A stretch of 64,000 bases of DNA from Gemmatimonadales bacterium (lineage in GTDB: Bacteria > Gemmatimonadota > Gemmatimonadetes > Gemmatimonadales > GWC2-71-9). Both the position numbers and the translations under genes were made by a program. Below, piece by piece: positions 28,270-63,326 of the stretch. The notes below the pieces were generated by a model. The model ran no database searches. It worked only from the letters and a program-made list of their open reading frames with translations, and was not told the origin of the DNA. The stretch spans positions 4,443 to 68,442 of the forward strand of contig JBOHSD010000013.1 of NCBI GenBank assembly GCA_050733075.1, in the 5' to 3' direction. Position 1 is the stretch's first letter. Each line of letters opens with the position of its first letter.

Positions 28270-29358
28270 TTGCCGCTCGTTGATGACGGGCTGACGGGGG
28301 CGCGGATCCTCATCGTGGACGATGAGGAACCGAACATCCGGGTGCTGGAACGGATTCTCGCCCAGTCGGGATACCAGCTGGTCGAGAGCACCACCTCGCC
28401 GCGCACCGTCGGATCGCTTTGCGCCCAATGGAAGCCCGATCTGATCCTGCTCGATCTCCAGATGCCCGACCTCGACGGCATCGGGGTCCTGCGGGAGCTC
28501 AGGCCGCTCATCCCGGCCGACAGCTACCTTCCCATCCTCATACTCACCGGAGACCAATCTCCGGACGCCAAGCGCAAAGCCCTGTCGAGCGGAGCGACCG
28601 ACTTTCTCACCAAGCCGTTCGACATGACCGAGGTGCTCCTCCGCATCCGAAACCTGCTGGAGGCGCGGAGTCTCCACCTGCGGTTACAGAACCACAACCA
28701 GCTGCTCGAGTCGCGGGTGCGGGAGCGTACCCGGGCCCTCGAGAAAGCGCAGCACGAGATCCTCGACCGGCTGGCCGGGGCGGGAGAGTTCCGGGATGAC
28801 GAGACCGGGCAGCACACCCACCGGGTCGGCACCATGTCGGCCGCGCTCGCTCGGGCCCTCGGAGCGGATGCCCGCGCGGTTCACCTGATAGGCCGGGCGG
28901 CGCCGCTGCACGACCTGGGTAAGATCGGCATACCGGATCGGGTGCTGCTCAAGCCCGGCCCGTTCACCGCGGAAGACGCCGCCATCATGCGGACCCACAC
29001 CACCATCGGCGCTGAGATCCTTTCGGGCGGGGAGTCCGAGCTCATCCTGATGGCGGAGCAGATCGCCCTCAGCCATCACGAGCGTTGGGATGGAACCGGA
29101 TATCCCGAGCGCCGCGCGGGGACCGACATCCCCTGGCCGGCCAGAGTGGTGTCGGTGGCCGACGTCTTCGACGCACTCAGCCACGACCGGCCCTATCGCC
29201 CGGCCTGGCCGCTGGACGCGGTCATCCGCGAGATCGAGAAGGTTGCGGGGAGCCAGCTCGACCCCGAGATGGCGGGCAGGTTCCTGTCCTCATGTGTCAA
29301 AGACTACACCGAAACGCTCAACCTCCCACCCTGGCGGCGTGAGGGCCGCCGGGGGTGA
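28270..29358 (+). CDS. Response regulator with HD-GYP domain (c-di-GMP phosphodiesterase type)
   Basis: 3' part of track ORF 27820..29358, with a probable TTG start at 28270. REC (ILIVDDEEPN...DLILLDLQMPDLDG...TKPF). HD-GYP (HDLGKIGIP, HHERWDGTGYP). Confidence 0.85.
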   Translation: MPLVDDGLTGARILIVDDEEPNIRVLERILAQSGYQLVESTTSPRTVGSLCAQWKPDLILLDLQMPDLDGIGVLRELRPLIPADSYLPILILTGDQSPDAKRKALSSGATDFLTKPFDMTEVLLRIRNLLEARSLHLRLQNHNQLLESRVRERTRALEKAQHEILDRLAGAGEFRDDETGQHTHRVGTMSAALARALGADARAVHLIGRAAPLHDLGKIGIPDRVLLKPGPFTAEDAAIMRTHTTIGAEILSGGESELILMAEQIALSHHERWDGTGYPERRAGTDIPWPARVVSVADVFDALSHDRPYRPAWPLDAVIREIEKVAGSQLDPEMAGRFLSSCVKDYTETLNLPPWRREGRRG

Positions 29359-31690
29359 GCAGGTCCATCCGCCGCAGCAGATCCTGAAAGCGCGGATCGC
29401 TGCGCAGCTCGTCGAAAATCGGGTCCACGCTGAGATAGGGCATATTGGGGTCGCGCGCCTGGTACGCCTTCTCCAGCCAATCGAGGGCCGCCTCATTTTT
29501 CCCGGCCCGGGTGTAGAGGGTCCCGATCTGCCAGGGCGTGACATGTGAGGTCCGCGAGCGTGCTGTCAGCAGCTCCGCCACCCGGGTCAGGGCCCCGGAA
29601 TAGCCCGCCTCCGCCGAGCCCCGAGCCAAGGCTTCTGCGGCTTCTGCGTCACCCTTCGCGAGGAAGGAAGCCTTCCACACATCCAGCGCCTCAGGGTACA
29701 TCGCCTTCTGGTGGTAGGCCGAGCGCAGGGTCGCCAGGGCCACCGCGTTGTGCGGCTCGGTCTTGAGGGTCTCCTGGAGGAGTGCGATGGCATCGTCGAA
29801 ACGGCGGGCGTACATCAGGTCCATGGCGTAAAGACCCTGGAAGAGCGGGTTGAGCGGGTCCAGCTTCAGGGCGAGGTCGATCTGGGCCATGGCCTCTTTC
29901 GGCCGGCCGAGAATGTGCAACAGGTGGGAGTAGTAGGCGCGCGACTGAGGTCCGTTAGGGTTGAGCGCGATGGCCCGCCGGAAAGAGCTCTCCGCTCCCT
30001 TCCAGTCCCAATCGGTCCAGCATCTTATACCCGCCAATGTGAAGTGGACGTCGGCGAGGGTGCTATCCAGGGCCAGGGCTCTCGCGGCGGCCGCCTTCGC
30101 CAGCGGGCTCGCCTTGCTGGCAGCTACGTACCCGTTCTGCTGGCGTGCCACCCAGACCAGCGCGATTCCGGCATGAGCCAGCGCATAGCCCGGATCCCTC
30201 GTCAGCGCCAGGCGGAAGTACTGTTCGGCGGTCTCGAGATCCTGTGGCGTGGCTCTGCGCCAGTGGAACATCCCCTTGAGATAGGCCTCATACGCCTCGG
30301 GGTTCACCGGTTGCGCGTCGCTCAACCGGGCCTCCGCTTCCGGCGTCAGCGCCGAGCGAACCTCGCCGGCGATGGCCCGCGTCACCTGGCGGTGCAGGGC
30401 CTGCACGCTCCGCAGGTCGCCGGCATAGGCGCCTGCCCACAGCGTTTGCTCGGTCCCACCATCGACCAGTTGCGCCCGGATGAACACGCTGTCTCCCGAC
30501 CGGGCCACCGAGGCCTCCACCACGGCGTCGGCGTTCAGTTCCCGGGTGATCTCCCGAGCCGGCTTGATAGTTTGTTGGTACTGCATCACCGAGGTACGGC
30601 CGATGACCGGGACCCCCGCCTGGGCCAGCTCGGATATCAGCGCGTCGTGCATCCCCTGGGCGAAGTATTCCTGTTCGGGGTCGTTCGTGAGGTTGGCGAG
30701 GGGGAGCACGGCCAGACGCCGGATGGCGGGCTCCTCCACCATGCCGGACACCCACCAGCCACCGGCTCCCAGGAGCAGAACGCCGGCCGCCGTTCCCCAG
30801 GTACGACGGCGGCGGGCCGACCGGGCCCGACGAGTCTCCGCCGCGATCGACTCGGCCGTGCTGGCCCGGGCCAACTGGGTAGCAAACTGGTCGGCCGTAG
30901 CGAAGCGGTCGGCAGGCACCTTCGCCAGCGCTTTCTGGACCACGCGCTCCACCCCCTGGGGAACGGTCGGACGCAGTGTGCGCAGCGATGGGACCGGGTC
31001 GATGGCGTGACGCGCCATCACCGCCTGAGCCGTGGGCCCGGTGAAGGGCGGCTCACCACCCAGCATCTCGTAGACCAGGCAGCCCAGGCTGTAGATGTCG
31101 GAACGGGCGTCGGCCCCCCGCTCCCCGCTGGACTGCTCCGGGCTCATGTAGGCCGGCGTTCCCAGGGCCAGTCCCGTCTCGGTCAGCCGCGTACCCGCGG
31201 CATCCGCGGCGCGGGCGATGCCGAAGTCGGCCACCACGAACTGGCCACCCGAGAGGAGGACATTCTCGGGCTTGATGTCTCGATGCACCACCCCGTGGGT
31301 GTGGGCATGGGTCAGCGCGTCGGCCACGTTCCTGGCGATCCGCACCGCCTCGTCCAGGGGAAGATGCCGTTCACGATCGAGATGATCCCGGAGGCTTTCG
31401 CCCTCGACATACGGCATGACGTAGTAGAGGAGCCCGTCGGCCTCTCCCGAGTCGTGGAGCGGCAGGATGTTGGGGTGGGAGAGCCTGGCCGCTATCTCGA
31501 TCTCCCGGAGGAATCGCTCGGGACCGATGGCATGGGCCAGCTCCGCCCTGAGCACCTTCACCGCCACCGGGCGTCCGTGCTTCAGGTCGGTCGCGAGGTA
31601 TACCGTAGCCATGCCGCCGTGGCCGAGCTCGCGCTGTATGCGATAGCGGTCGCCGATAATGGACTGGAGGCGGGCAAGGGAATCGGCCAT
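29318..31690 (-). CDS. Ser/Thr protein kinase - TM - TolB-N-like domain - TPR repeats
   Basis: Track ORF 29318..31957. ATG at 31690 gives MADSLARLQSIIGDRYRIQRELGHGGMATVYLA. HRDIKPEN, DFG and SPEQ motifs. TPR-rich C-terminus. Confidence 0.85.
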   Translation of the reverse strand: MADSLARLQSIIGDRYRIQRELGHGGMATVYLATDLKHGRPVAVKVLRAELAHAIGPERFLREIEIAARLSHPNILPLHDSGEADGLLYYVMPYVEGESLRDHLDRERHLPLDEAVRIARNVADALTHAHTHGVVHRDIKPENVLLSGGQFVVADFGIARAADAAGTRLTETGLALGTPAYMSPEQSSGERGADARSDIYSLGCLVYEMLGGEPPFTGPTAQAVMARHAIDPVPSLRTLRPTVPQGVERVVQKALAKVPADRFATADQFATQLARASTAESIAAETRRARSARRRRTWGTAAGVLLLGAGGWWVSGMVEEPAIRRLAVLPLANLTNDPEQEYFAQGMHDALISELAQAGVPVIGRTSVMQYQQTIKPAREITRELNADAVVEASVARSGDSVFIRAQLVDGGTEQTLWAGAYAGDLRSVQALHRQVTRAIAGEVRSALTPEAEARLSDAQPVNPEAYEAYLKGMFHWRRATPQDLETAEQYFRLALTRDPGYALAHAGIALVWVARQQNGYVAASKASPLAKAAAARALALDSTLADVHFTLAGIRCWTDWDWKGAESSFRRAIALNPNGPQSRAYYSHLLHILGRPKEAMAQIDLALKLDPLNPLFQGLYAMDLMYARRFDDAIALLQETLKTEPHNAVALATLRSAYHQKAMYPEALDVWKASFLAKGDAEAAEALARGSAEAGYSGALTRVAELLTARSRTSHVTPWQIGTLYTRAGKNEAALDWLEKAYQARDPNMPYLSVDPIFDELRSDPRFQDLLRRMDLLTPGGPHAARVGG

Positions 31691-32008
31691 CAGGATGTAA
31701 TATGCAGGCCGGACACGGAGATGCACGGTCAAGGCAAGAGGCGTCCTAAAGGAGGCCCACCGAGCGTTGAGTCGCACGCCCTCGGTGAGTAAGGACCGAT
31801 GAGTGTTGCGGGGTCGCGAACACATCTGTCTCAGAGCGCCAGCCCATTGCTTCCGGGAACCAGCATCAACCAGACGATAACCAGTAGCTGAATGAGAGGT
31901 TATCCGCCGAATTCGATCGGGCGCCTTATATGGCCTGGCATATGCAATCGGATGCACTCACGGCCATACAGGATCTTTTCGGCTCGCTCCCCCGCGTCGG
32001 AGACCATC

Positions 32009-33064
32009 ATGTCGCCCCGCCCCACGCTCGAGTTCGCGCTCCCCCTTACCGTGCTTGCCTTGCTCGCTTGTGGTGAGACCACGACCCCGACCCAGCCCGA
32101 TATGGGCGGGGATCCGGCCGCCCTATCGCTGGCAGCGGCCACGAACAGTTGGACCCCACGGGCTCCAACGCCCTTTAGTGAAGAGTTCTACGGGTATGAT
32201 CTTGGGATGGCGCCCAACGCCGCCGGGCAATCAATCGTGTATACGTTCGGCGGCACCGATGGCGAAGGAGGCACCGGGTTCTCGGTGCAGGCCTACAACG
32301 TGACCACTGATACCTGGACGGGAAAGCTCTCCCGGGTCGGCGTGTTCCACTCCAACGGCGTCGGCAAGATCGGGGGCAAGCTCTACTTCTCGGGCGGCTA
32401 CAACGAGGTCGAGACCCCACCGAGCTTCTCCAATCTGGTGTGGGCTTACGACTACTCCCGTGACCGGATGATTCGGAAGGCCGATCTGCCGATCTTCAGC
32501 GCCGAAGGCGTCACGGGTGTCATTAATGGCAAGCTCTACGTGCTCCCGGGCGCCTGTTCCGGGGAGCGCTACCCCAATGCGGGCTACTGTGCCGAGGAAC
32601 CCACTCGCCGCTTCTACCGCTACGATCCGGCCACGAACACCTGGGTGAGCAGGCGACAAGCGCCGCACTTTCACCGGCAAGGCGCTGCTGCCGTGATCGA
32701 CGGCAAGTTGTATGTAGTGGGCGGCCACAACAACTTCACGCCCGTTGCCGATCTTGATGTCTACGATCCGGGGACGAACAGTTGGCGCAGCCTCGCTCCA
32801 ATTCCAACAGCCGGAGGCGCGGCCGGAGCAGCGTTGGGGGGACAATTCTATGTTGTTGTCCAGCAATTCAGCGGAGCCTCTTTCTCCTATCGCTTCTACG
32901 CCTACAACCGATTCACCAACCAGTGGAAGGAGAAGGCAGCTCCCAGCTTTGACCAAGGAGTAGGGGCGTTCCGCGGCAAGGGGTCAGTGACGAAAGTGAC
33001 GCTCGACGGCCGCCCCCGCCTCTTCATGGCCACTGGAGATCAGAGCGCGCTGTACACGCCATGA
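32009..33064 (+). CDS. Kelch-repeat beta-propeller lipoprotein
   Basis: Track ORF 31892..33064. The ATG at 32009 gives a lipobox signal (LALLAC). Repeated GG..GKLY..GG / W motifs. Confidence 0.75.
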   Translation: MSPRPTLEFALPLTVLALLACGETTTPTQPDMGGDPAALSLAAATNSWTPRAPTPFSEEFYGYDLGMAPNAAGQSIVYTFGGTDGEGGTGFSVQAYNVTTDTWTGKLSRVGVFHSNGVGKIGGKLYFSGGYNEVETPPSFSNLVWAYDYSRDRMIRKADLPIFSAEGVTGVINGKLYVLPGACSGERYPNAGYCAEEPTRRFYRYDPATNTWVSRRQAPHFHRQGAAAVIDGKLYVVGGHNNFTPVADLDVYDPGTNSWRSLAPIPTAGGAAGAALGGQFYVVVQQFSGASFSYRFYAYNRFTNQWKEKAAPSFDQGVGAFRGKGSVTKVTLDGRPRLFMATGDQSALYTP

Positions 33065-33134: not shown

Positions 33135-33162
33135 AAGGTGTGGTAAGTGCTGGTCTGAGAAG

Positions 33163-33235
33163 CTCCCGAGGAGGGACTCGAACCCCCGACCCGGTGATTA
33201 ACAGTCACCTGCTCTACCAGCTGAGCTACTCGGGA
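33163..33235 (-). tRNA. tRNA-Asn (anticodon GTT)
   Basis: Folded by hand. Acceptor TCCCGAG/CTCGGGA, D-arm GCTC-AGCTGGTA-GAGC, anticodon arm GGTGA-CTGTTAA-TCACC, T-arm GGGGG-TTCGAGT-CCCTC. CCA is not encoded. Confidence 0.9.
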
Positions 33236-33245
33236 AAGCGTAACA

Positions 33246-33274
33246 ATTGTAATGACTTAGCCAGCCGTACTCAA
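33246..33274 (-). promoter_or_regulatory. Candidate sigma70-type promoter for tRNA-Asn (TTGAGT-17 nt-TACAAT)
   Basis: Minus-strand reading: the -35 element is at 33274-33269 and the -10 element at 33251-33246. The -10 ends 10 nt before the mature tRNA 5' end. Confidence 0.4.
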
Positions 33275-33289
33275 GACCTCATTACTCGT

Positions 33290-33309
33290 AAGTTATCCTA
33301 AAGTTATTC
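33290..33309. repeat. 20-nt AT-rich direct repeat, left copy (AAGTTATCCTAAAGTTATTC)
   Basis: Exact match to 37710-37729, read directly. Confidence 0.9.
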
Positions 33310-33556: not shown

Positions 33557-33973
33557 ATGTCACCGCCGCGTCATAGTCGCCCGCCACCGGAAGAACTGAA
33601 ACGGCTGCTCGCCCGCACGCCGTTCATCCAAAACGAGTGCGACCTCGATCTGCTGGCGTTCTTGCACCGGCATCCGCGCACCCTGCTGACCAGCGAGCAA
33701 CTGGCCGGGTTTGTCGGCTACAACATCAAGGATGTCGCCAGAGCGGTGGATGCCTTCATCGAGGCCGGCCTGCTGGGACGGGCGCCTCAGCATTCGATGC
33801 ATGCGGCACGCATGTTCCTTCTCCTGATCGATGGCCCGCATGGAGGACCAGTACGCGCGTTGCTGGAAATGGTTACCACCCGAGAAGGAAAGCGGGCCAT
33901 TCTGGAAGCCTTGAACGCGCCAGGACCCCACCCAGAACCTGGCCCCGCTCTGGAACTGCGGGTGGCGAGATAG
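33557..33973 (+). CDS. Hypothetical wHTH-like protein (first gene of islet)
   Basis: Track ORF. The segment LTSEQLAGFVGYNIKDVARAVDAFIEAGLL looks like a MarR/wHTH recognition region. No family recognised. Confidence 0.5.
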   Translation: MSPPRHSRPPPEELKRLLARTPFIQNECDLDLLAFLHRHPRTLLTSEQLAGFVGYNIKDVARAVDAFIEAGLLGRAPQHSMHAARMFLLLIDGPHGGPVRALLEMVTTREGKRAILEALNAPGPHPEPGPALELRVAR

Positions 33974-34000
33974 CTAGCAGCTCAAAGCTGGAGAGTTTTC

Positions 34001-35551
34001 ATGCCTGAATCTGATCTGGTAAGAACCGGTGTCGCCGGGCTCGATGAGATCTTGTCCGGCGGAATTCCGCGCGGCAACCTGATACTCCTGGAAGGCGCCA
34101 TCGGCTGCGGCAAGACCACGCTGGGCGTGGAGTTTGTCTACCGCGGGGCTAGCCAGTTTGATGAACCCGGCATCATCGTCCTCTTCGAGACGTCGCCCGA
34201 CAAGATCATCCGGGATGCCCAGCGCTTCGGCTGGGACCTGCGCGAGTTGGAACGCACCAACCGGTTGAGAATCGTGTTCACCAGTCGCGACGTCTTGCGC
34301 CAGGAGCTGCAGCAGGCCGACAGTGTGTTGCTCGAAGAGGCCACCAGGATCGGCGCCCGCCGCATCTTCATCGATGGTGTGGCCCGACTGGGCGGTGGCA
34401 ACGGCACCCAGGAGTCCCGTTCGGCGTTTCATGTCTTCACCGAGGGGCTGCAGCGGGAGAACCTGACGGCTATTCTGGCGATTGAAGCCTCGGAGTACAA
34501 CCCCGACCAATCCGTTTCGCTGCCCGAGGAATCCATTGCCGACACGGTCATCCGCCTGAGGATGGAGGACAACCAGCGCGCCGTTGTCCGCTCGATCGAG
34601 ATCGTGAAATCACGGGGCCAGCACTACCAGATGGGGCGCCACACCTTTCGCATCATCGATGGCCACGGCCTCCAGGTGTACCGCCGGGTGCAGGCACCCC
34701 GGGGCGGGCAGCGCGACCGCGCCGCGGCCTACGATCCCACCACCCGCATCTCGACTGGAATCCCCGGGCTCGACGAGCTCACCAATGGGGGATACTTCGT
34801 CGGCAGTACCACCGTGGTGGCAGGAATCTCCGGTGTCGGCAAGAGCGTGATGGGTCTCCAGTACATCGCGGAAGGCGCGCGGCGCGGCGAACGCAGCCTG
34901 ATGCTGAGCCTGGACGAGCAGGTGGAACAGATCATCCGCAATGCCGCCAGCATCGGCATCGATCTTCGCCGCGAGGTGAAGCGTAGCCTGATCCGCGTAG
35001 AGTATGAGCCGCCCCAGGAGATCGAGGTGGATGTGCACTTCCACCACATCGAGCAACTGGTGGAGGAGTTCCAGCCCAAGCGGGTGGTAATCGACAGCCT
35101 GTCCACTTACGGTTCGAATCTCGGCACCCAGGGAAGGATCTTTCGAGATTTTTTCCACGCCATGGTGGCCCTGATGAAGGAGCATCAGATCGCGGCAGTC
35201 TACAATCACGAAAACCCGGAGATGCTGGGGATGGCGTCCATGATGGGCGACTTCGCCATGAGCTCGCTGGTGGATAACATCATCCTCATGAACTGGGCCG
35301 AGCTGGGTGACACGTTCCGCCTGGGGCTGACCATCGCCAAGATGCGCGCCAATCCGGTCATCAGGACCACGCGCGAGGTTGAGGTTCTTGACGGCCAGGG
35401 CATGCGCGTGCTGCCGCGAGAGCTGCGCGTGCCGGCGGACCAGCACCCATTCTCCAGCTACGCCGGGCTGGTGTCGCGGGCCCCCGAGCGGCGCGACCTT
35501 CACCGGCAAGCTGAAGTAAAGGACAAAGCTCGTGGTAAATCCCCGCGCTGA
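34001..35551 (+). CDS. KaiC-like double RecA-domain ATPase
   Basis: Track ORF. GGAGAG Shine-Dalgarno 7 nt upstream. Two KaiC-type domains, each with GLDE..GGIP/GGYF, Walker A (GAIGCGKT, GISGVGKS) and Walker B (RIFIDGV, VVIDSLS). Confidence 0.85.
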   Translation: MPESDLVRTGVAGLDEILSGGIPRGNLILLEGAIGCGKTTLGVEFVYRGASQFDEPGIIVLFETSPDKIIRDAQRFGWDLRELERTNRLRIVFTSRDVLRQELQQADSVLLEEATRIGARRIFIDGVARLGGGNGTQESRSAFHVFTEGLQRENLTAILAIEASEYNPDQSVSLPEESIADTVIRLRMEDNQRAVVRSIEIVKSRGQHYQMGRHTFRIIDGHGLQVYRRVQAPRGGQRDRAAAYDPTTRISTGIPGLDELTNGGYFVGSTTVVAGISGVGKSVMGLQYIAEGARRGERSLMLSLDEQVEQIIRNAASIGIDLRREVKRSLIRVEYEPPQEIEVDVHFHHIEQLVEEFQPKRVVIDSLSTYGSNLGTQGRIFRDFFHAMVALMKEHQIAAVYNHENPEMLGMASMMGDFAMSSLVDNIILMNWAELGDTFRLGLTIAKMRANPVIRTTREVEVLDGQGMRVLPRELRVPADQHPFSSYAGLVSRAPERRDLHRQAEVKDKARGKSPR

Positions 35552-37574
35552 CCCGCTCTTCAGCTCCGAGCTGTGGGAGTCAGCGCTGGAGAAGTTTGCC
35601 ACCGTGGCCCACCTGACCGTCCGCTTGTTCGATACGGACGCGCGCGCTGTCCTCGGCCCGGTGCATCCCACGCCGTTGTTCCAGGTGTTCGAGGAAACCG
35701 GCTACGACCCCGGTATTTTTGCCGAATGTGCCCGCCGCTGCATCGCGCAGACCGAGGAACGTCCCGCGGTTGTGGTCTCTCAGTTCCAGGGTTTGGCTGT
35801 CGTAGGGGCCTCGCTGATGCTGGAGGGCAAGATCGTCGGGGCGGCGGTTGCCGGATACGCCTTTGCGGACTTCTGTCAGGTATCGGAGGTTCAGCGCCTG
35901 GCGCGCCAGTCCGGCATTGGCTTCGAGCGGCTGTGGGAGGTCGCGCGCAAGGAGCCGCCGGTACCCCAACGCCGGTTGCTGGTGCATGGCGAGCTGCTGC
36001 AAGTCCTCGGTGATTCGCTGCTGCGAGAGAACTACCGCACCCGACAGTACGAGCACGCCGCCGCCATCGTGAATTCCTCCGACGATGCCATCATCAGCGA
36101 GAATCTCGAAGGCGTTATTACCAGTTGGAATCGGGGGGCGGAGCGTCTCTTTGGCTATACCGCGCAAGAAGCCGTTGGGCGGCCGATAGCCATTCTCACG
36201 CCTCCTGGGCGGATCGACGAAGCCCCGCGCATTCTAGAGCGGATCCGCCAGGGAGAGTCCATCGAACATTATGAGGTGGTCCGCCGCCGCAAGGACGGCA
36301 GGTTGCTCGACATCTCGTTGACGGCTTCTCCCATCACCGCTGCGCGCGGTCAACTTGCCGGCATTTCGGAGATCGGACGCGATAACACCGACCGCAAACG
36401 GGCCGAGGAGGCGCTCCGCAGCGCTGACCGCATGGAGGCGGTGGGCCGGCTGGCCGGCGGCGTGGCCCACGAGGCCAACAACCAGATGACGGTGGTGCTG
36501 GGTTGCGCGGGTTTCGCCCTCCGCCAGCCTGATCTGGCACCCGAGCTGCACCAGGAGCTCCTCAATATCCGCAAGGCGGCAGAGCGAACTGCCGCCATCA
36601 CCGCACAGCTGCTGGCCTTCAGCCGGCGCCAGATACTCCAGCCGGCGCCATTGGACCTGAACGAGGTGGTCCGCGCATTCGCGCCGATTCTTCACCGGAC
36701 GCTGGGCGATGCAAGCGAGCTGGAGCTAGAGCTCTCGCCGTGTGAGGTCGCGGTTGTCGCCGACCGGGGCCAGCTGGAGCAGGTCCTGCTCAACCTGACC
36801 CTCAACGCCCGCGATGCGATGCTAAATAGCGGCAGGCTCACGATCGGGACCGGCATCGTGACACTCCCCCGGCTGGGGCCCCACAGCGTCCTCACAGAGC
36901 CCCTGCCTCCCGGTCAGTACGGGGCGCTCACGGTGCAGGACACGGGACAGGGCATGAGCCCGGAGACGGTGACCCGGATCTTTGAGCCGTTCTTCACCAC
37001 CAAGCCCATTGGCGACGGCACCGGCCTCGGACTCTCCACTGTGTACGGCATCGTGCGGCAATTGGGCGGCACGATCCGGGTGCATAGCGCACCCAGCAGC
37101 GGCACGATCTTCCGGATGTATCTGCCGCTGACAGAGTTGCCCAAAGCGGCGGAAGCCGATCGGCCCACCGGGCCCTGGGCCGCTGCGACCGGCACCGTCC
37201 TGGTTGTGGAGGATGAGCCGGCGGTGCGCACCTTGGCGGTGCGCGCGTTGCAAGCCGATGGGTTTCAGGTGCTCGAGGCCGGGCACGGCCAAGAGGCCGT
37301 CGAGCTCCTCGGCAGGCACCGGGGTTCCGTACAAGCCGTCGTCGCTGATGTGGCGATGCCGGTCATGAGTGGTCCCGAGCTAGCCGAGCGGCTGGCGCAA
37401 TCCCATCCGGGAACCCCAGTGCTCCTGATGTCGGGCTATGCCGCCGAGGAGTTGGTGCGGCGGGGAATGCTGCCGAAGGACGCCGCACCGCTGCTGACGA
37501 AACCGTTTGCGCCGGAAGTCCTGGTCGAGCGGGTGCGGGCCCTGGTGGAATCGGTGCGATCCCTGGCTGGATAG
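35532..37574 (+). CDS. Hybrid sensor histidine kinase: PocR-like N-terminal domain - PAS - HisKA - HATPase_c - REC
   Basis: Track ORF. GTG start 20 nt inside the kaiC-like 3' end. PAS (ITSWNRGAERLFGYTAQEAVGRP), H-box GGVAHEANNQM, G-boxes DTGQGM and GTGLGLS, REC (VLVVEDEP...DVAMPVMSG...TKPF). Confidence 0.85.
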   Translation: MVNPRADPLFSSELWESALEKFATVAHLTVRLFDTDARAVLGPVHPTPLFQVFEETGYDPGIFAECARRCIAQTEERPAVVVSQFQGLAVVGASLMLEGKIVGAAVAGYAFADFCQVSEVQRLARQSGIGFERLWEVARKEPPVPQRRLLVHGELLQVLGDSLLRENYRTRQYEHAAAIVNSSDDAIISENLEGVITSWNRGAERLFGYTAQEAVGRPIAILTPPGRIDEAPRILERIRQGESIEHYEVVRRRKDGRLLDISLTASPITAARGQLAGISEIGRDNTDRKRAEEALRSADRMEAVGRLAGGVAHEANNQMTVVLGCAGFALRQPDLAPELHQELLNIRKAAERTAAITAQLLAFSRRQILQPAPLDLNEVVRAFAPILHRTLGDASELELELSPCEVAVVADRGQLEQVLLNLTLNARDAMLNSGRLTIGTGIVTLPRLGPHSVLTEPLPPGQYGALTVQDTGQGMSPETVTRIFEPFFTTKPIGDGTGLGLSTVYGIVRQLGGTIRVHSAPSSGTIFRMYLPLTELPKAAEADRPTGPWAAATGTVLVVEDEPAVRTLAVRALQADGFQVLEAGHGQEAVELLGRHRGSVQAVVADVAMPVMSGPELAERLAQSHPGTPVLLMSGYAAEELVRRGMLPKDAAPLLTKPFAPEVLVERVRALVESVRSLAG

Positions 37575-37709
37575 GGACAATTGTCGCAGAACGCGGGGAG
37601 TTCCGGCATTCTTAGCTCCGGGGTGTGTTGTGTGTTGCCTTAGGCTCTCATTCCGAATCGACTCAGCCAACGCCCGCCGTCTCCATTGGGTGAAACGTAC
37701 GACTGAGAA

Positions 37710-37729
37710 AAGTTATCCTAAAGTTATTC
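37710..37729. repeat. 20-nt AT-rich direct repeat, right copy
   Basis: Exact match to 33290-33309. Confidence 0.9.
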
Positions 37730-37872
37730 TTGGGTGCCAAAATTAGGCGATTTCAGTGGAGTCGAACAAAATCGTACGCACTCGTCACTCGCGACGTAAG
37801 CTGTTGCTCTAAAATGAACTGTGTGAGGATTACAACGACTTACAGTTTCGGCTGGAAAGCAGCGAGGAGTAG

Positions 37873-37910
37873 TTAACAGTCACCTGCTCTACCAGCTGAG
37901 CTACTCGGGA
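37873..37910 (-). repeat. Orphan copy of tRNA-Asn nucleotides 1-38 (5' half through the anticodon loop)
   Basis: Exact 38-nt identity with 33198-33235. No matching 3' half is adjacent. Confidence 0.9.
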
Positions 37911-38299
37911 TTGTCGGCGGGTGAGCGCCTGCTTTGCGCCCTGCCGGCAGGGCAAAAACTAGCGGCGCGAGCCAGGTTAGGCAACGAGAACCCGCGAGTC
38001 ATCATCCCACCTTCATCACCCCTCCCTGCTAGAGAATCGGCCTGTCCAATTTGAGTGCCTCAGCGACGAAAGCTGCATACGACGTGAGGCGCAGCACAGC
38101 CAAGCCCCGCCAACCGAGGTATCTTGGCGGCGCCGTTGGTGCAGTCTGATCCCGGTTCAGCCCCTGAAAGTGCCACTGAGCAGCCGCTCGCAGACCTGAG
38201 GACTATGTGAGTAGTCACTCTTGCAAAGTGTCAAGAAAGGCACCCTGTTTGTTGACACCTCGTCCCTCCAGTTTGCACCTAAGTCATTGTTGAGAAAAA

Positions 38300-38308
38300 T
38301 GTTACAAT
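38300..38308 (+). promoter_or_regulatory. Extended -10-like element TGTTACAAT upstream of holB
   Basis: Sits in an AT-rich stretch 44 nt before the ATG at 38352. No good -35 element. Confidence 0.25.
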
Positions 38309-38351
38309 ATCCATACTACCGCTTTTCCGCCCACTGCGTAGCTTCGGTTCG

Positions 38352-60795: not shown

Positions 60796-61571
60796 GCGTT
60801 CGCCTTTCGAGAGCTCTCGAGCACCGCGCTCACTACTTTCATCATTTCCGCCACGGTGAACGGCTTTTCAATGGTCCGTGACGCGCCAAGCAGCTTGGCC
60901 TCGGGGAGCAGATCTATCTGGTTGGCTCCCCCACCGGACATGGCAATGATTGGAACCTGAGGGCTTTGCGCCCGCAGCTCCATCAGAGTCTCTAAACCGT
61001 CCTTTTCCGGCATGAATAAGTCCAGGATGACCAGGTCTGCACCGGCCTCTCGCCAGATCCGTATCGCCTCGTTCCCGTTCCCGGCCAGCATGACATCGTG
61101 CCCTGCGGTGGTGAGCACTTTGGCCAGTGACGATCGGATACCCGCGTCGTCATCCGCCACCAAAATCCGCTTCCTCTGACGATGCTGCTCCAGAGCTTCC
61201 TTGACCTTCGCCAGGGCCTCGCCTCGAGTGTACGGCTTGGCCAGGAAGGGAACGCTCAACGTGGTTTGCCCATAACGGGCCAGAACCTCGGCGGGATGAG
61301 CCGACATGTACAGAATACGCTGGGCCGGCCACTGCTCTAACACATGGCGCCCGATGGCGACACCGTCACAGTCGGGCATGACCACGTCGATCATGAGAAG
61401 ATCCACGCGGCCGTTGGCCTGGTGGAGGGCATCCAGCGTCTCGGCACAACTGGAGGCCTCGAGCACTCGGAATCCCTCCTCACTGAGGATCCGGTACGCG
61501 ACCCGGCGCGAGACCGACTCGTCATCTACCACTAAGATGGTGGCGGGGCCGTGGAGCGGCGGAGGAGACAA
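60792..61571 (-). CDS. Tandem-receiver response regulator (REC-REC, no output domain)
   Basis: Track ORF. Two REC domains (ILVVDDES...IDVVMPDCDG...AKPY; ILVADDDA...LDLFMPEKDG...EKPF). 4-nt overlap with the M20 gene. Confidence 0.8.
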   Translation of the reverse strand: MSPPPLHGPATILVVDDESVSRRVAYRILSEEGFRVLEASSCAETLDALHQANGRVDLLMIDVVMPDCDGVAIGRHVLEQWPAQRILYMSAHPAEVLARYGQTTLSVPFLAKPYTRGEALAKVKEALEQHRQRKRILVADDDAGIRSSLAKVLTTAGHDVMLAGNGNEAIRIWREAGADLVILDLFMPEKDGLETLMELRAQSPQVPIIAMSGGGANQIDLLPEAKLLGASRTIEKPFTVAEMMKVVSAVLESSRKANA

Positions 61572-62900: not shown

Positions 62901-63326
62901 GTGTCTAGTCCGTTTCCGCATGCCGCGACGACCATCCTAGTCGTCGATGATGAAAGAATGTCCCGGCGCGTGGCCTACCGCATTCTGAGCGAGGCGGGTT
63001 ACCGGGTGCTGGAGGCGGAGGACGGTGCCGAGGCCCTGGACGTGCTCGGCAAGGCTCGCGCCGGCGTGGACCTGCTGATACTGGACGTTGTGATGCCCGG
63101 GTGCGACGGTGTCGAGCTGGGCCGACGCGTCCTGGAGCAATGGCCCGACCAGCGCATCCTCTACATGTCAGCGCATCCAGCGGAGGTGCTGGTCCGCCAC
63201 GGGCTGCCCTCGCTCGACGTTCCCTTCCTCGCCAAGCCATACACCCGTGACGAGGCACTGACCAAGGTGCACGAGGCGCTGGAGCGCCGTCGTAGCTCCC
63301 GAGCCGGGACGCGGACCGGCCGCTAG
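62901..63326 (+). CDS. Single-domain response regulator (paralog of the first REC of 60792..61571)
   Basis: Track ORF 62880..63326. The GTG at 62901 has GAGG 5 nt upstream. Shares runs RRVAYRILSE, RILYMSAHPAEVL and VPFLAKPYTR with the tandem-REC protein. Confidence 0.75.
   Translation: MSSPFPHAATTILVVDDERMSRRVAYRILSEAGYRVLEAEDGAEALDVLGKARAGVDLLILDVVMPGCDGVELGRRVLEQWPDQRILYMSAHPAEVLVRHGLPSLDVPFLAKPYTRDEALTKVHEALERRRSSRAGTRTGR

Follow-up and report, generated by a model that had tools for sequence, protein, structure and literature searches.

The stretch of DNA analysed here, called the window, comprises 64,000 nt from a Gemmatimonadales bacterium (GenBank assembly GCA_050733075.1, contig JBOHSD010000013.1, positions 4,443 to 68,442) and carries three adjacent genes that encode a small protein with a predicted winged helix-turn-helix fold, a KaiC-like ATPase and a hybrid histidine kinase. 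All three lie on the plus strand in this order. The first gene (33557-33973) encodes a putative divergent MarR-type protein of 138 amino acids (aa), the second (34001-35551) a KaiC-like double RecA-domain ATPase of 516 aa, and the third (35532-37574), which starts with GTG, a kinase of 680 aa. The gap between the small-protein gene and kaiC is 27 nt, with GGAGAG ahead of the kaiC ATG, and kaiC overlaps the kinase gene by 20 nt, with a Shine-Dalgarno-like AAGGA motif 8 nt 5′ of the kinase GTG. The same 20-nt overlap was found in three related loci (L001, L002 and L032; related loci are given as L and a number). Because of the short gap with its GGAGAG, the overlap with its AAGGA and the recurrence of that overlap, the triad is probably transcribed as one translationally coupled operon. 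An earlier interpretation made from the letters alone, hereafter the sequence-only reading, had given the same positions and order for the three open reading frames, and its description of tight linkage with a kinase start 20 nt inside the 3′ end of kaiC was exact. We conclude that the three genes form a genuine, tightly linked signalling module.

The ATPase contains two KaiC domains by Pfam (PF06745, E 6e-89), CI at approximately aa 7-229 and CII at approximately aa 250-470. In CI we located the Walker A residues K38/T39, the pair E63-T64, the Walker B residue D125 and the arginine finger R205; the corresponding residues in CII are K281/S282, D305-E306, D365 and R449. The two RecA-type domains with intact Walker A (K38, K281) and Walker B (D125, D365) motifs were thus as the sequence-only reading had described them. 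Its alignment of a Ser-Ser pair to the KaiC phosphosites also held: in a HMMER alignment to solved KaiC chains, S421-S422 (35261-35266, plus strand) faced S431-T432, and both serines were invariant among 120 homologues, as were the Walker A K and T(S), the Walker B D and the arginine fingers. An alignment to KaiC references had been proposed as a check of both the phosphosites and the catalytic glutamates, and in the latter the ATPase departs from KaiC. The Glu-Glu pair of CI is replaced by E63-T64, where T64 occupies the position of E78 (Val in 113 of the 120 homologues), and that of CII is replaced by D305-E306, with Asp at the position of E318 in all 120. The position of T426 is G416, likewise Gly in 120 of 120. 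The role of general base is usually assigned to E318. Among cyanobacterial KaiC proteins the Glu-Glu pairs are kept in all subgroups and T426 is highly conserved (PMC5520375), and a Ser-Ser pair at the phosphosites is also present in KaiC2 (PMC5520375) and in Pseudomonas group III (bioRxiv 10.1101/2022.01.26.477890).

The best match among solved KaiC structures was 8zn5 (3.9e-71, full-length alignment), an entry cited in a study that examined ancestral Kai proteins to trace how Kai oscillators originated in evolution (PMC12081879). Cyanobacterial and ancestral KaiC proteins matched at 1e-60 to 4e-71, Synechococcus KaiC at about 5e-60 and Rhodobacter KaiC at 4.6e-44. The protein failed the cut-offs of both NCBIfam circadian-KaiC equivalogs, scoring 299.9 bits against 408 for NF006799 and 215 against 546.25 for TIGR02655. 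Since the catalytic glutamates are non-canonical and these cut-offs were failed, its sequence places the ATPase in the KaiC family (PF06745) but not among the clock KaiC orthologues. The KaiB-linked KaiC of a Sinorhizobium plasmid has Glu-Glu in both domains, and the KaiB-less, kinase-coupled KaiC-like proteins of Variovorax and Agrobacterium have a single-Glu CI and an Asp-Glu CII, as in the window ATPase. The C-terminal tail carries the motif PFSSYAGLVSRAPERR (aa 483-498; 35447-35494, plus strand), of which 12 positions are at least 90% conserved, and which possibly serves to dock a partner. A relaxed version of it, P[FL]Sx[YF]xG[LI], was found in the window family and in the Variovorax and Agrobacterium pAt proteins, all KaiB-less and kinase-coupled, and it was absent from the KaiB-linked Sinorhizobium KaiC. 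With a comparison of three against one, an association between the tail motif and the absence of KaiB is a lead only.

In the third gene, Pfam found PocR (aa 9-168), PAS (aa 175-290), HisKA (aa 305-367), HATPase_c (aa 411-534) and REC (aa 556-669) domains, the full architecture that had been claimed for it. The PocR-like N-terminal domain (PF10114, 32.9 bits against a gathering cut-off of 23.9) is encoded at 35556-36035 and is followed by an output part at 36054-37538 that varies between genomes; here it consists of PAS (36054-36401), HisKA (36444-36632), HATPase_c (36762-37133) and REC (37197-37538), all on the plus strand. The catalytic motifs are intact, with the H-box H313, N421/N425, the G1 box DTGQG at 470-474, the G2 box GDGTGLGL at 494-499 and the receiver residues E560-D561, D606, S634 and K657. 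Among 51 complete partners encoded at this position, the PocR domain was recognized in 47, HATPase_c in 43, HisKA in 30, HisKA_3 in 10 and HWE_HK/HisKA_2 in 9, together with REC in 23, PAS in approximately 20, GAF in 2 and SpoIIE in 1. In one further protein from a domain search (P0308), GGDEF stands behind the PocR-like domain. The PocR-like domain itself is 56-85% identical in all loci while the domains downstream of it vary. The constant third partner is therefore this N-terminal PocR/PAS-like domain of approximately 170 aa and not the kinase, because the outputs behind it include three kinase classes, with or without REC, as well as GGDEF and a PP2C phosphatase.

An AlphaFold2 model of the PocR-like domain (mean predicted local distance difference test, pLDDT, 90.6) showed a sheet of five strands with helices between them, preceded by an N-terminal helix and followed by a long C-terminal one. 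Foldseek returned weak matches of the PAS, GAF, IclR ligand-binding-domain and LOV types and nothing thioredoxin-like. Helix 62-71 carries a Cys pair, C66-x3-C70 (35727-35741, plus strand), that is invariant within the triad subfamily. Together with C28 of the small protein, these two cysteines, one helical turn apart, may point to an input by redox state or metal. The Variovorax homologue has no such pair, and some divergent relatives of the small protein lack C28. In P. putida, KaiC binds the adjacent hybrid kinase, and the N-terminal PAS domain of that kinase (aa 1-138) is sufficient for the contact (bioRxiv 10.1101/2022.01.26.477890). By analogy with this PAS domain, and given its constancy while the kinase is swapped, the PocR-like domain is better read as a KaiC-docking adaptor, whether or not it also acts as a sensor. 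The sequence-only reading had called it a ligand-binding input; the domain is there, but its behaviour between genomes would better fit a KaiC-coupling adaptor.

The window copy of the small protein gave no Pfam match. Its AlphaFold2 model (pLDDT 78, core 85-93) has the topology H-H-b-H-H-b-b-H-H, a winged helix-turn-helix with flanking N- and C-terminal helices, and the top 50 Foldseek matches were all of the MarR/ArsR type (template modelling score 0.43-0.51, E approximately 4e-3). The Pfam family MarR_2 was matched by 30 of 47 divergent relatives (E≤0.01; best 5.5e-8), and a profile search against the Protein Data Bank (PDB) gave weak MarR matches (E 2.5e-3). At the level of the fold, the winged-helix assignment of the sequence-only reading was borne out, and the structural model points to a divergent MarR-type winged helix. 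Among its invariant residues are C28, D31, F35, L36, R38, H39, P40, T45, E47 and G54; C28 (33638-33640, plus strand) is next to the invariant R38-H39-P40. The protein was absent from 8 of 69 KaiC loci, also when searched with a profile hidden Markov model. In six of these eight loci, which form a sub-clade (L071, L072, L083, L101, L109 and L113), the same upstream slot is taken by a conserved Crp/FNR-type regulator of approximately 235 aa (HTH_Crp_2, E 9e-13; for example L072:558-1262). One winged-helix transcription factor replaced by another suggests that the upstream slot holds a DNA-binding regulator.

The co-occurrence of the trio in other genomes was a point that the sequence-only reading had left to be checked, and the three genes were found together from both directions. 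Starting from the small protein, we obtained 284 homologues with 58-76% identity, and at 50% identity the family made up 422 clusters in a set of 1.84 billion representatives. A reference-genome scan with the same protein gave 24 loci from Nitrospirota, Acidobacteriota, Gemmatimonadota and Proteobacteria, several of them on long contigs (26 kb to 6.9 Mb). The labels of two short contigs, L011 and L020, may be binning errors and were not relied on. In 26 distinct loci reached from the small protein, KaiC (70-85% identical) and then the PocR-like domain (56-73% identical) followed it wherever there was room. Starting from KaiC in metagenomes, at least 306 loci were confirmed in one scan and 80 were retrieved. 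We found the small protein directly upstream of KaiC in 61 of 69 loci and, directly downstream, the PocR-like domain in 57 of 59; the full triad was present in 42 of 50, so that the trio is far from being peculiar to the window. Given the number of these loci and of the small-protein clusters, the family is common in soil metagenomes.

Identity between KaiC proteins across phyla was 70-91%, and in the loci reached from KaiC the small protein was 32-69% identical compared to 70-86% for KaiC. Neighbour-joining trees of the three components were mutually congruent and their phylum labels were interleaved. Because the trees agree and the phyla are mixed, the module appears to have been inherited as a unit and to have crossed phylum boundaries. 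The triad is found again, with very little change, in uncultured soil bacteria from four phyla. We also looked for a copy on plasmids of cultured hosts and rejected it, as the small protein was found on 0 of 72,556 plasmids and the best KaiC match there was 39%. Two loci depart from the standard arrangement. In a metagenome-assembled genome of Acidobacteriaceae, a partial second copy (L014:5789-7772; a kaiC fragment, PocR-like domain and REC) lies directly upstream of a complete small-protein and kaiC pair, which suggests a tandem duplication or a decaying copy. In one Bryobacteraceae locus, the PocR-domain gene downstream of kaiC is on the opposite strand (L017:10048-11274, minus strand), the sole broken operon order seen.

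The sequence-only reading had also stated that KaiB is lacking, and our searches agreed. No KaiB was found by tblastn in the 64-kb window (E≤10) or in approximately 110 related loci (E≤1e-3), and none was present in the 80 loci retrieved from KaiC (0/80). As a control, the KaiB probe matched PDB 4kso (E 5e-62) as well as the KaiB proteins of Rhodobacter and Legionella. A KaiB in disguise was rejected, since the folds of the small protein and of the PocR-like domain are both unlike the thioredoxin/KaiB type and tblastn gave nothing.

We propose, with a probability of roughly 55%, that the locus encodes a KaiB-independent, KaiC-based signalling triad composed of a MarR regulator, a PocR adaptor and a KaiC-like ATPase. 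The KaiC-like protein is predicted from homology to form a hexameric double-ring ATPase that would autophosphorylate S421/S422 in CII and in this way hold a slowly changing nucleotide and phosphorylation state. The PocR-like, PAS-fold domain would dock on KaiC and relay this state through its long C-terminal helix to the fused output, which would be a PAS-HisKA-HATPase-REC hybrid kinase here and a HisKA_3 or HWE kinase, GGDEF or a PP2C phosphatase elsewhere. The 138-aa MarR-type protein would act as a DNA-binding regulator of the operon itself, of output genes, or of both. By analogy with Pseudomonas, the role of the triad is likely to be stress or energy-state signalling or an hourglass-type timer rather than a self-sustained clock.

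Several observations weigh against this proposal. The docking of KaiC to the PocR-like domain is deduced from co-occurrence and from the analogy to the Pseudomonas PAS domain, which may or may not be homologous to it. With a CI that lacks the second catalytic Glu, an Asp for E318 in CII and a Gly for T426, the autokinase and ATPase behaviour may differ from that of KaiC or be weak. There was no conserved fourth gene downstream: the best cluster was present in 6 of 38 loci and a stand-alone REC in 3 of 38, and a cognate response regulator or Hpt in this role was rejected on the same loci. All 24 reference-genome matches were metagenome-assembled genomes, with no cultured host known. For the small protein as an operon regulator, no 8-10-nt k-mer was common to more than 4 of 24 upstream regions, so a general conserved operator upstream of the operon was rejected, and blastn of the non-coding flanks of the window against all loci gave matches in the same genome alone. 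The exposed positions of its recognition helix are also less conserved than H1-beta1-H2 and the wing. Because no operator is conserved and the exposed recognition-helix face is less conserved, it is possible that the small protein acts through protein contacts instead.

The PocR-like domain might instead be mainly a small-molecule or redox sensor, with KaiC not docking on it but acting elsewhere, for example on the PAS or DHp part of the kinase or on the small protein, or working in parallel. PocR domains were defined as predicted ligand-binding sensors (Anantharaman & Aravind 2005, as cited in PMC5847659). The fold is of the PAS/GAF type that binds small molecules, and C66-x3-C70 on a single fold-lining helix suggests a metal, cofactor or redox site. 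However, one would not expect a domain for input alone to stay 56-85% identical strictly beside one KaiC subfamily while the transmitter behind it is swapped, and the Variovorax domain lacks the Cys pair and is still encoded behind a KaiC-like gene. We therefore consider sensing as the main function rather unlikely, and the sensor and adaptor roles are not mutually exclusive.

Another explanation is that the small MarR-like protein binds KaiC, for example on its PFSSY tail, and sets the phosphorylation state as a stand-in for KaiB or KaiA. Its identity of 58-76% across phyla is very high for a regulator, its invariant residues cluster in H1-beta1-H2 and the wing and not on the exposed recognition-helix face, the 24 upstream regions share no operator, and the conserved KaiC tail is a candidate contact site. 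In contrast, by fold and family it groups with the DNA-binding MarR regulators, its core is mildly basic (median pI 9.0), and in one sub-clade its place is taken by a DNA-binding Crp/FNR regulator. It also diverges faster than KaiC in the loci reached from KaiC, which would be odd for an obligate subunit, and the tail motif is found in Variovorax and Agrobacterium KaiC-like proteins without such a small protein. Taken together, a KaiC-binding modulator seems unlikely.

The surroundings of the trio in the window bear on whether it is cargo of a mobile element. An intact tRNA-Asn (GTT) gene was found by ARAGORN at 33162-33235 on the minus strand (Rfam RF00005, 67.8 bits). The 5′ half of this tRNA gene (33198-33235) recurs as an exact 38-nt direct repeat at 37873-37910 (plus strand), where it forms a truncated tRNA fragment that ends in the anticodon loop. 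The two copies are 4,675 nt apart, identical at 38 of 38 positions, and bracket the trio. A second exact direct repeat of 20 nt, AAGTTATCCTAAAGTTATTC, with AAGTTAT twice inside it, is present at 33290-33309 and 37710-37729 (both plus strand). These were its two matches in the window, with 0 expected, and for the 38-nt repeat none is expected by chance either. The order is thus 38-nt repeat, 54 nt, 20-nt repeat, trio, 20-nt repeat, 143 nt, 38-nt repeat, as expected from the integration of a circle whose attP had a 38-nt core with the 20-nt site on each arm. Duplication of the 5′ part of a tRNA gene, rather than its 3′ part, by integration is unusual, and the element would have to supply the tRNA promoter. 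A sigma-70-like promoter, TTGAGT-17-TACAAT (33246-33274, minus strand; a consensus match only), lies in the 54-nt arm and points into the tRNA, and this promoter-like site would fit such a need. The equivalent in L032 is TTGAGG/TATAAT, and in L032 and L033 a motif like the 20-nt repeat is equally far from the tRNA. No integrase was found between the repeats, which enclose the three genes only, nor did the genes called in the flanking 10 kb to the left and right include one. The 4.7-kb segment with its att-like bounds at tRNA-Asn is probably the record of a site-specific integration with the integrase acting in trans.

Related loci bear on this event in different ways. L032, in which KaiC is 91% identical, is syntenic with the window (a Kelch-like gene, tRNA-Asn, the trio, holB and moaC) and is without the distal 363 nt that carry the second repeat copies. 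It too has the trio at tRNA-Asn, and so shows no empty site. Between the window and L032 the small protein, KaiC and the kinase are 70, 91 and 81% identical in amino acid sequence, compared to 67-84% for the flanking housekeeping genes, and the G+C content at third codon positions (GC3) is 0.81 in kaiC and 0.79 in the kinase gene against 0.75-0.89 in the flanks, that is, host-like. Because the divergence matches that of the flanking genes and GC3 is host-like, the trio appears to have been at the tRNA-Asn site since before the split from the L032 genome. That the repeat copies are perfectly identical would point to a later event or to conversion.

In L033 (KaiC 89% identical), the trio is directly 5′ of a tRNA-Ala (L033:5903-5975, 285 nt upstream of the small gene), and the contig ends inside the kinase so that the distal repeat region is not covered. 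In L072, a tRNA-Ser follows 55 nt after the kinase (L072:4722-4816). An adjacent tRNA was found in approximately 4 of 108 loci and none in the remaining ~104, and tRNA adjacency as a general property was rejected. The repeated location next to tRNA genes or islands that the sequence-only reading had raised was therefore occasional. Its suggestion of mobility stood in part: exact tRNA-half repeats do bracket the trio here, but the bracket is not general and no integrase accompanies it. A 4,697-nt Logan contig (L031) was considered as a circular form of the segment and rejected, since exactly 30 nt of the repeat stand at each of its ends, as a break of the assembly graph at a 38-nt repeat would leave; 30 nt equals k-1 for k = 31, which we take to be the k of the assembler. 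Near some copies of the module we observed mobile or toxin genes (L005:5224-6798, L001:12162-12811, L002:28-318 and L057:60-635), of the kinds integrase Arm-DNA-binding fragment, DDE_3 transposase, PIN toxin pair, HTH_17 excisionase-like gene and IS1595 transposase.

That the trio is mobile-element cargo with a maintenance or defence function, and not housekeeping signalling, would be in keeping with the exact att-like repeats, the tRNA adjacency in L032, L033 and L072, the transposase, integrase-fragment, toxin-antitoxin or excisionase-like genes near some loci, the mixed phyla in the trees and a weak PADLOC mad8 match for the ATPase (E 2.9e-9). Against it stand the lack of an integrase in the segment and within 10 kb, the lack of an adjacent tRNA in most loci, the absence of the small protein from the plasmids searched, and the host-like GC3 and flank-like divergence from L032, which indicate long vertical residence. 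PADLOC found nothing for the other two proteins and mad8 reflects generic RecA/KaiC-type similarity, so that a defence-system identity was rejected; altogether we regard the cargo explanation as very unlikely. A generic RecA/RadA/DnaB-like DNA-transaction ATPase that stands beside a kinase by chance, which the sequence-only reading had kept in view for the case that the CII phosphosites and catalytic residues were missing, has weak secondary Pfam and NCBIfam matches to DnaB_C, RecA and RadA in its favour and is effectively refuted by the full-length, two-domain KaiC match far above these, by the invariant phosphosite serines and by the strict co-occurrence with signalling domains.

The flanks of the segment hold other genes. 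Upstream are a Ser/Thr protein kinase with TPR repeats (29318-31957, minus strand) and a Kelch/beta-propeller protein with a hydrophobic, signal-like N-terminal segment (31892-33064, plus strand); the Kelch gene is syntenic in L032 and has, at 67%, the lowest identity among the flanking genes. Downstream, 777 nt (37575-38351) separate the kinase from a holB-like gene. They are gene-free and of lower G+C content (0.50-0.57), contain, besides the repeats, the palindrome GCCCTGCCGGCAGGGC at 37933-37958 and a segment conserved with L032 (37938-37990), and gave no Rfam family match. Two receiver-domain genes further away, at 61179-61541 (minus strand) and 62922-63296 (plus strand), are 34-40% identical to the REC domain of the kinase.

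The function of KaiC homologues outside cyanobacteria, and of KaiB-less signalling in particular, is an open field with few tractable systems. The KaiB-independent triad would offer a minimal one, with three genes, one constant adaptor, invariant candidate phosphosites, altered catalytic residues and a conserved tail. It also shows that the partner co-evolving with KaiC can be a single domain and not a whole kinase, which gives a way to predict KaiC partners elsewhere. A wider interpretation, which we put forward tentatively and with less than even confidence, is a KaiB-free 'plug-and-play' architecture in which a PAS/PocR adaptor, possibly with a redox or metal input through its CxxxC motif, has been fused repeatedly to varied outputs, while a MarR-type protein of its own feeds back on DNA or on KaiC itself. 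The conservation of KaiC would then be that of a multi-partner timing or energy hub, spread partly as a 4.7-kb integrase-less, tRNA-targeting element.

Compared to known systems, the triad most resembles the KaiC operons of Pseudomonas (Terrettaz et al., bioRxiv 10.1101/2022.01.26.477890), above all group III with P. putida PP_3834/PP_3835. Both have a KaiC homologue of two domains that is not accompanied by KaiB (in the whole genome for Pseudomonas, in the loci searched for the triad), a (hybrid) histidine kinase in the same operon, and Ser-Ser at the S431/T432 positions, so that the window trio shows the whole combination of a KaiC and kinase operon, no KaiB and a phosphorylatable pair at 431/432 that marks the Pseudomonas type. 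The contact between KaiC and the kinase through an N-terminal PAS-type domain was shown there, and its counterpart in the window is suggested by analogy. The role of Pseudomonas KaiC is stress-related and not circadian, and the group III KaiC with Ser-Ser phosphosites is phosphorylated (bioRxiv 10.1101/2022.01.26.477890). The differences are that no small MarR-like partner was reported in Pseudomonas, that the triad family is restricted to uncultured Nitrospirota, Acidobacteriota, Gemmatimonadota and some Proteobacteria, and that the 38 triad loci have no conserved downstream gene where Pseudomonas groups III and I have a single-domain response regulator or a CsrA-family or exopolysaccharide (EPS)-sortase gene. 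With the cyanobacterial KaiABC and SasA/CikA-RpaA system the triad shares the double ATPase, candidate CII phosphosites and a kinase with an N-terminal docking domain, docking being a prediction in our case. It differs from that system in the docking fold, which is PAS/PocR compared to thioredoxin/KaiB-like in SasA, in having no KaiB in its loci, in the catalytic pairs (Glu-Thr/Val in CI and Asp-Glu in CII against Glu-Glu), in Gly for T426, in the failed NCBIfam cut-offs and in its C-terminal tail. The proteobacterial KaiBC operons with a PAS kinase (Rhodopseudomonas, Rhodobacter and Sinorhizobium sp. B11 plasmid p2) are alike in the order of KaiC followed by a PAS-domain kinase and in the Ser-Ser phosphosites, but have kaiB between kaiC and the kinase, Glu-Glu in both domains and a long C-terminal coiled-coil extension (561 aa).

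A more distant relative is located on plasmid 4 of Variovorax sp. WDL1 (L114; NZ_LR594692.1:27510-31363), with a KaiC-like protein and a PocR-HisKA kinase. It shares the single-Glu CI, the Asp-Glu CII and the PFSSY tail, and its kinase gene overlaps kaiC and encodes a homologous PocR-like N-terminus (hhalign probability 99.4, E 4.9e-21). In contrast, its KaiC is 39% identical, has Ser-His for Ser-Ser, and its PocR-like domain has no Cys pair; the kinase gene is interrupted by an IS481 element and the plasmid is mobilizable. The 128-aa protein encoded upstream of the KaiC-like gene was considered as a homologue of the MarR-like protein and rejected as unrelated, as was the N-terminus of the Agrobacterium pAt kinase as a homologue of the PocR-like domain. 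A similar KaiC-like gene was seen on a second Variovorax plasmid (NZ_CP138497.1, match H2). As a version in a cultured organism, the Variovorax plasmid locus may be an entry point. The archaeal KaiC-like ATPases (Makarova, Galperin & Koonin 2017, as cited in PMC5847659) are comparable as KaiC-family hubs wired to varied signalling partners. They are a separate lineage with a separate architecture, mostly single-domain proteins.

A KaiC coupled to a (hybrid) histidine kinase without KaiB is thus already known, from the Pseudomonas experiments and as a common arrangement on plasmids of cultured Proteobacteria, and this architecture is not new. A limited literature search returned nothing on a combination of KaiC with PocR or of KaiC with MarR. 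What we did not find described is the combination in the triad of the private MarR-type protein, the constant PocR-fold partner with swappable outputs, the very high conservation and the fixed non-canonical residues of the active sites.

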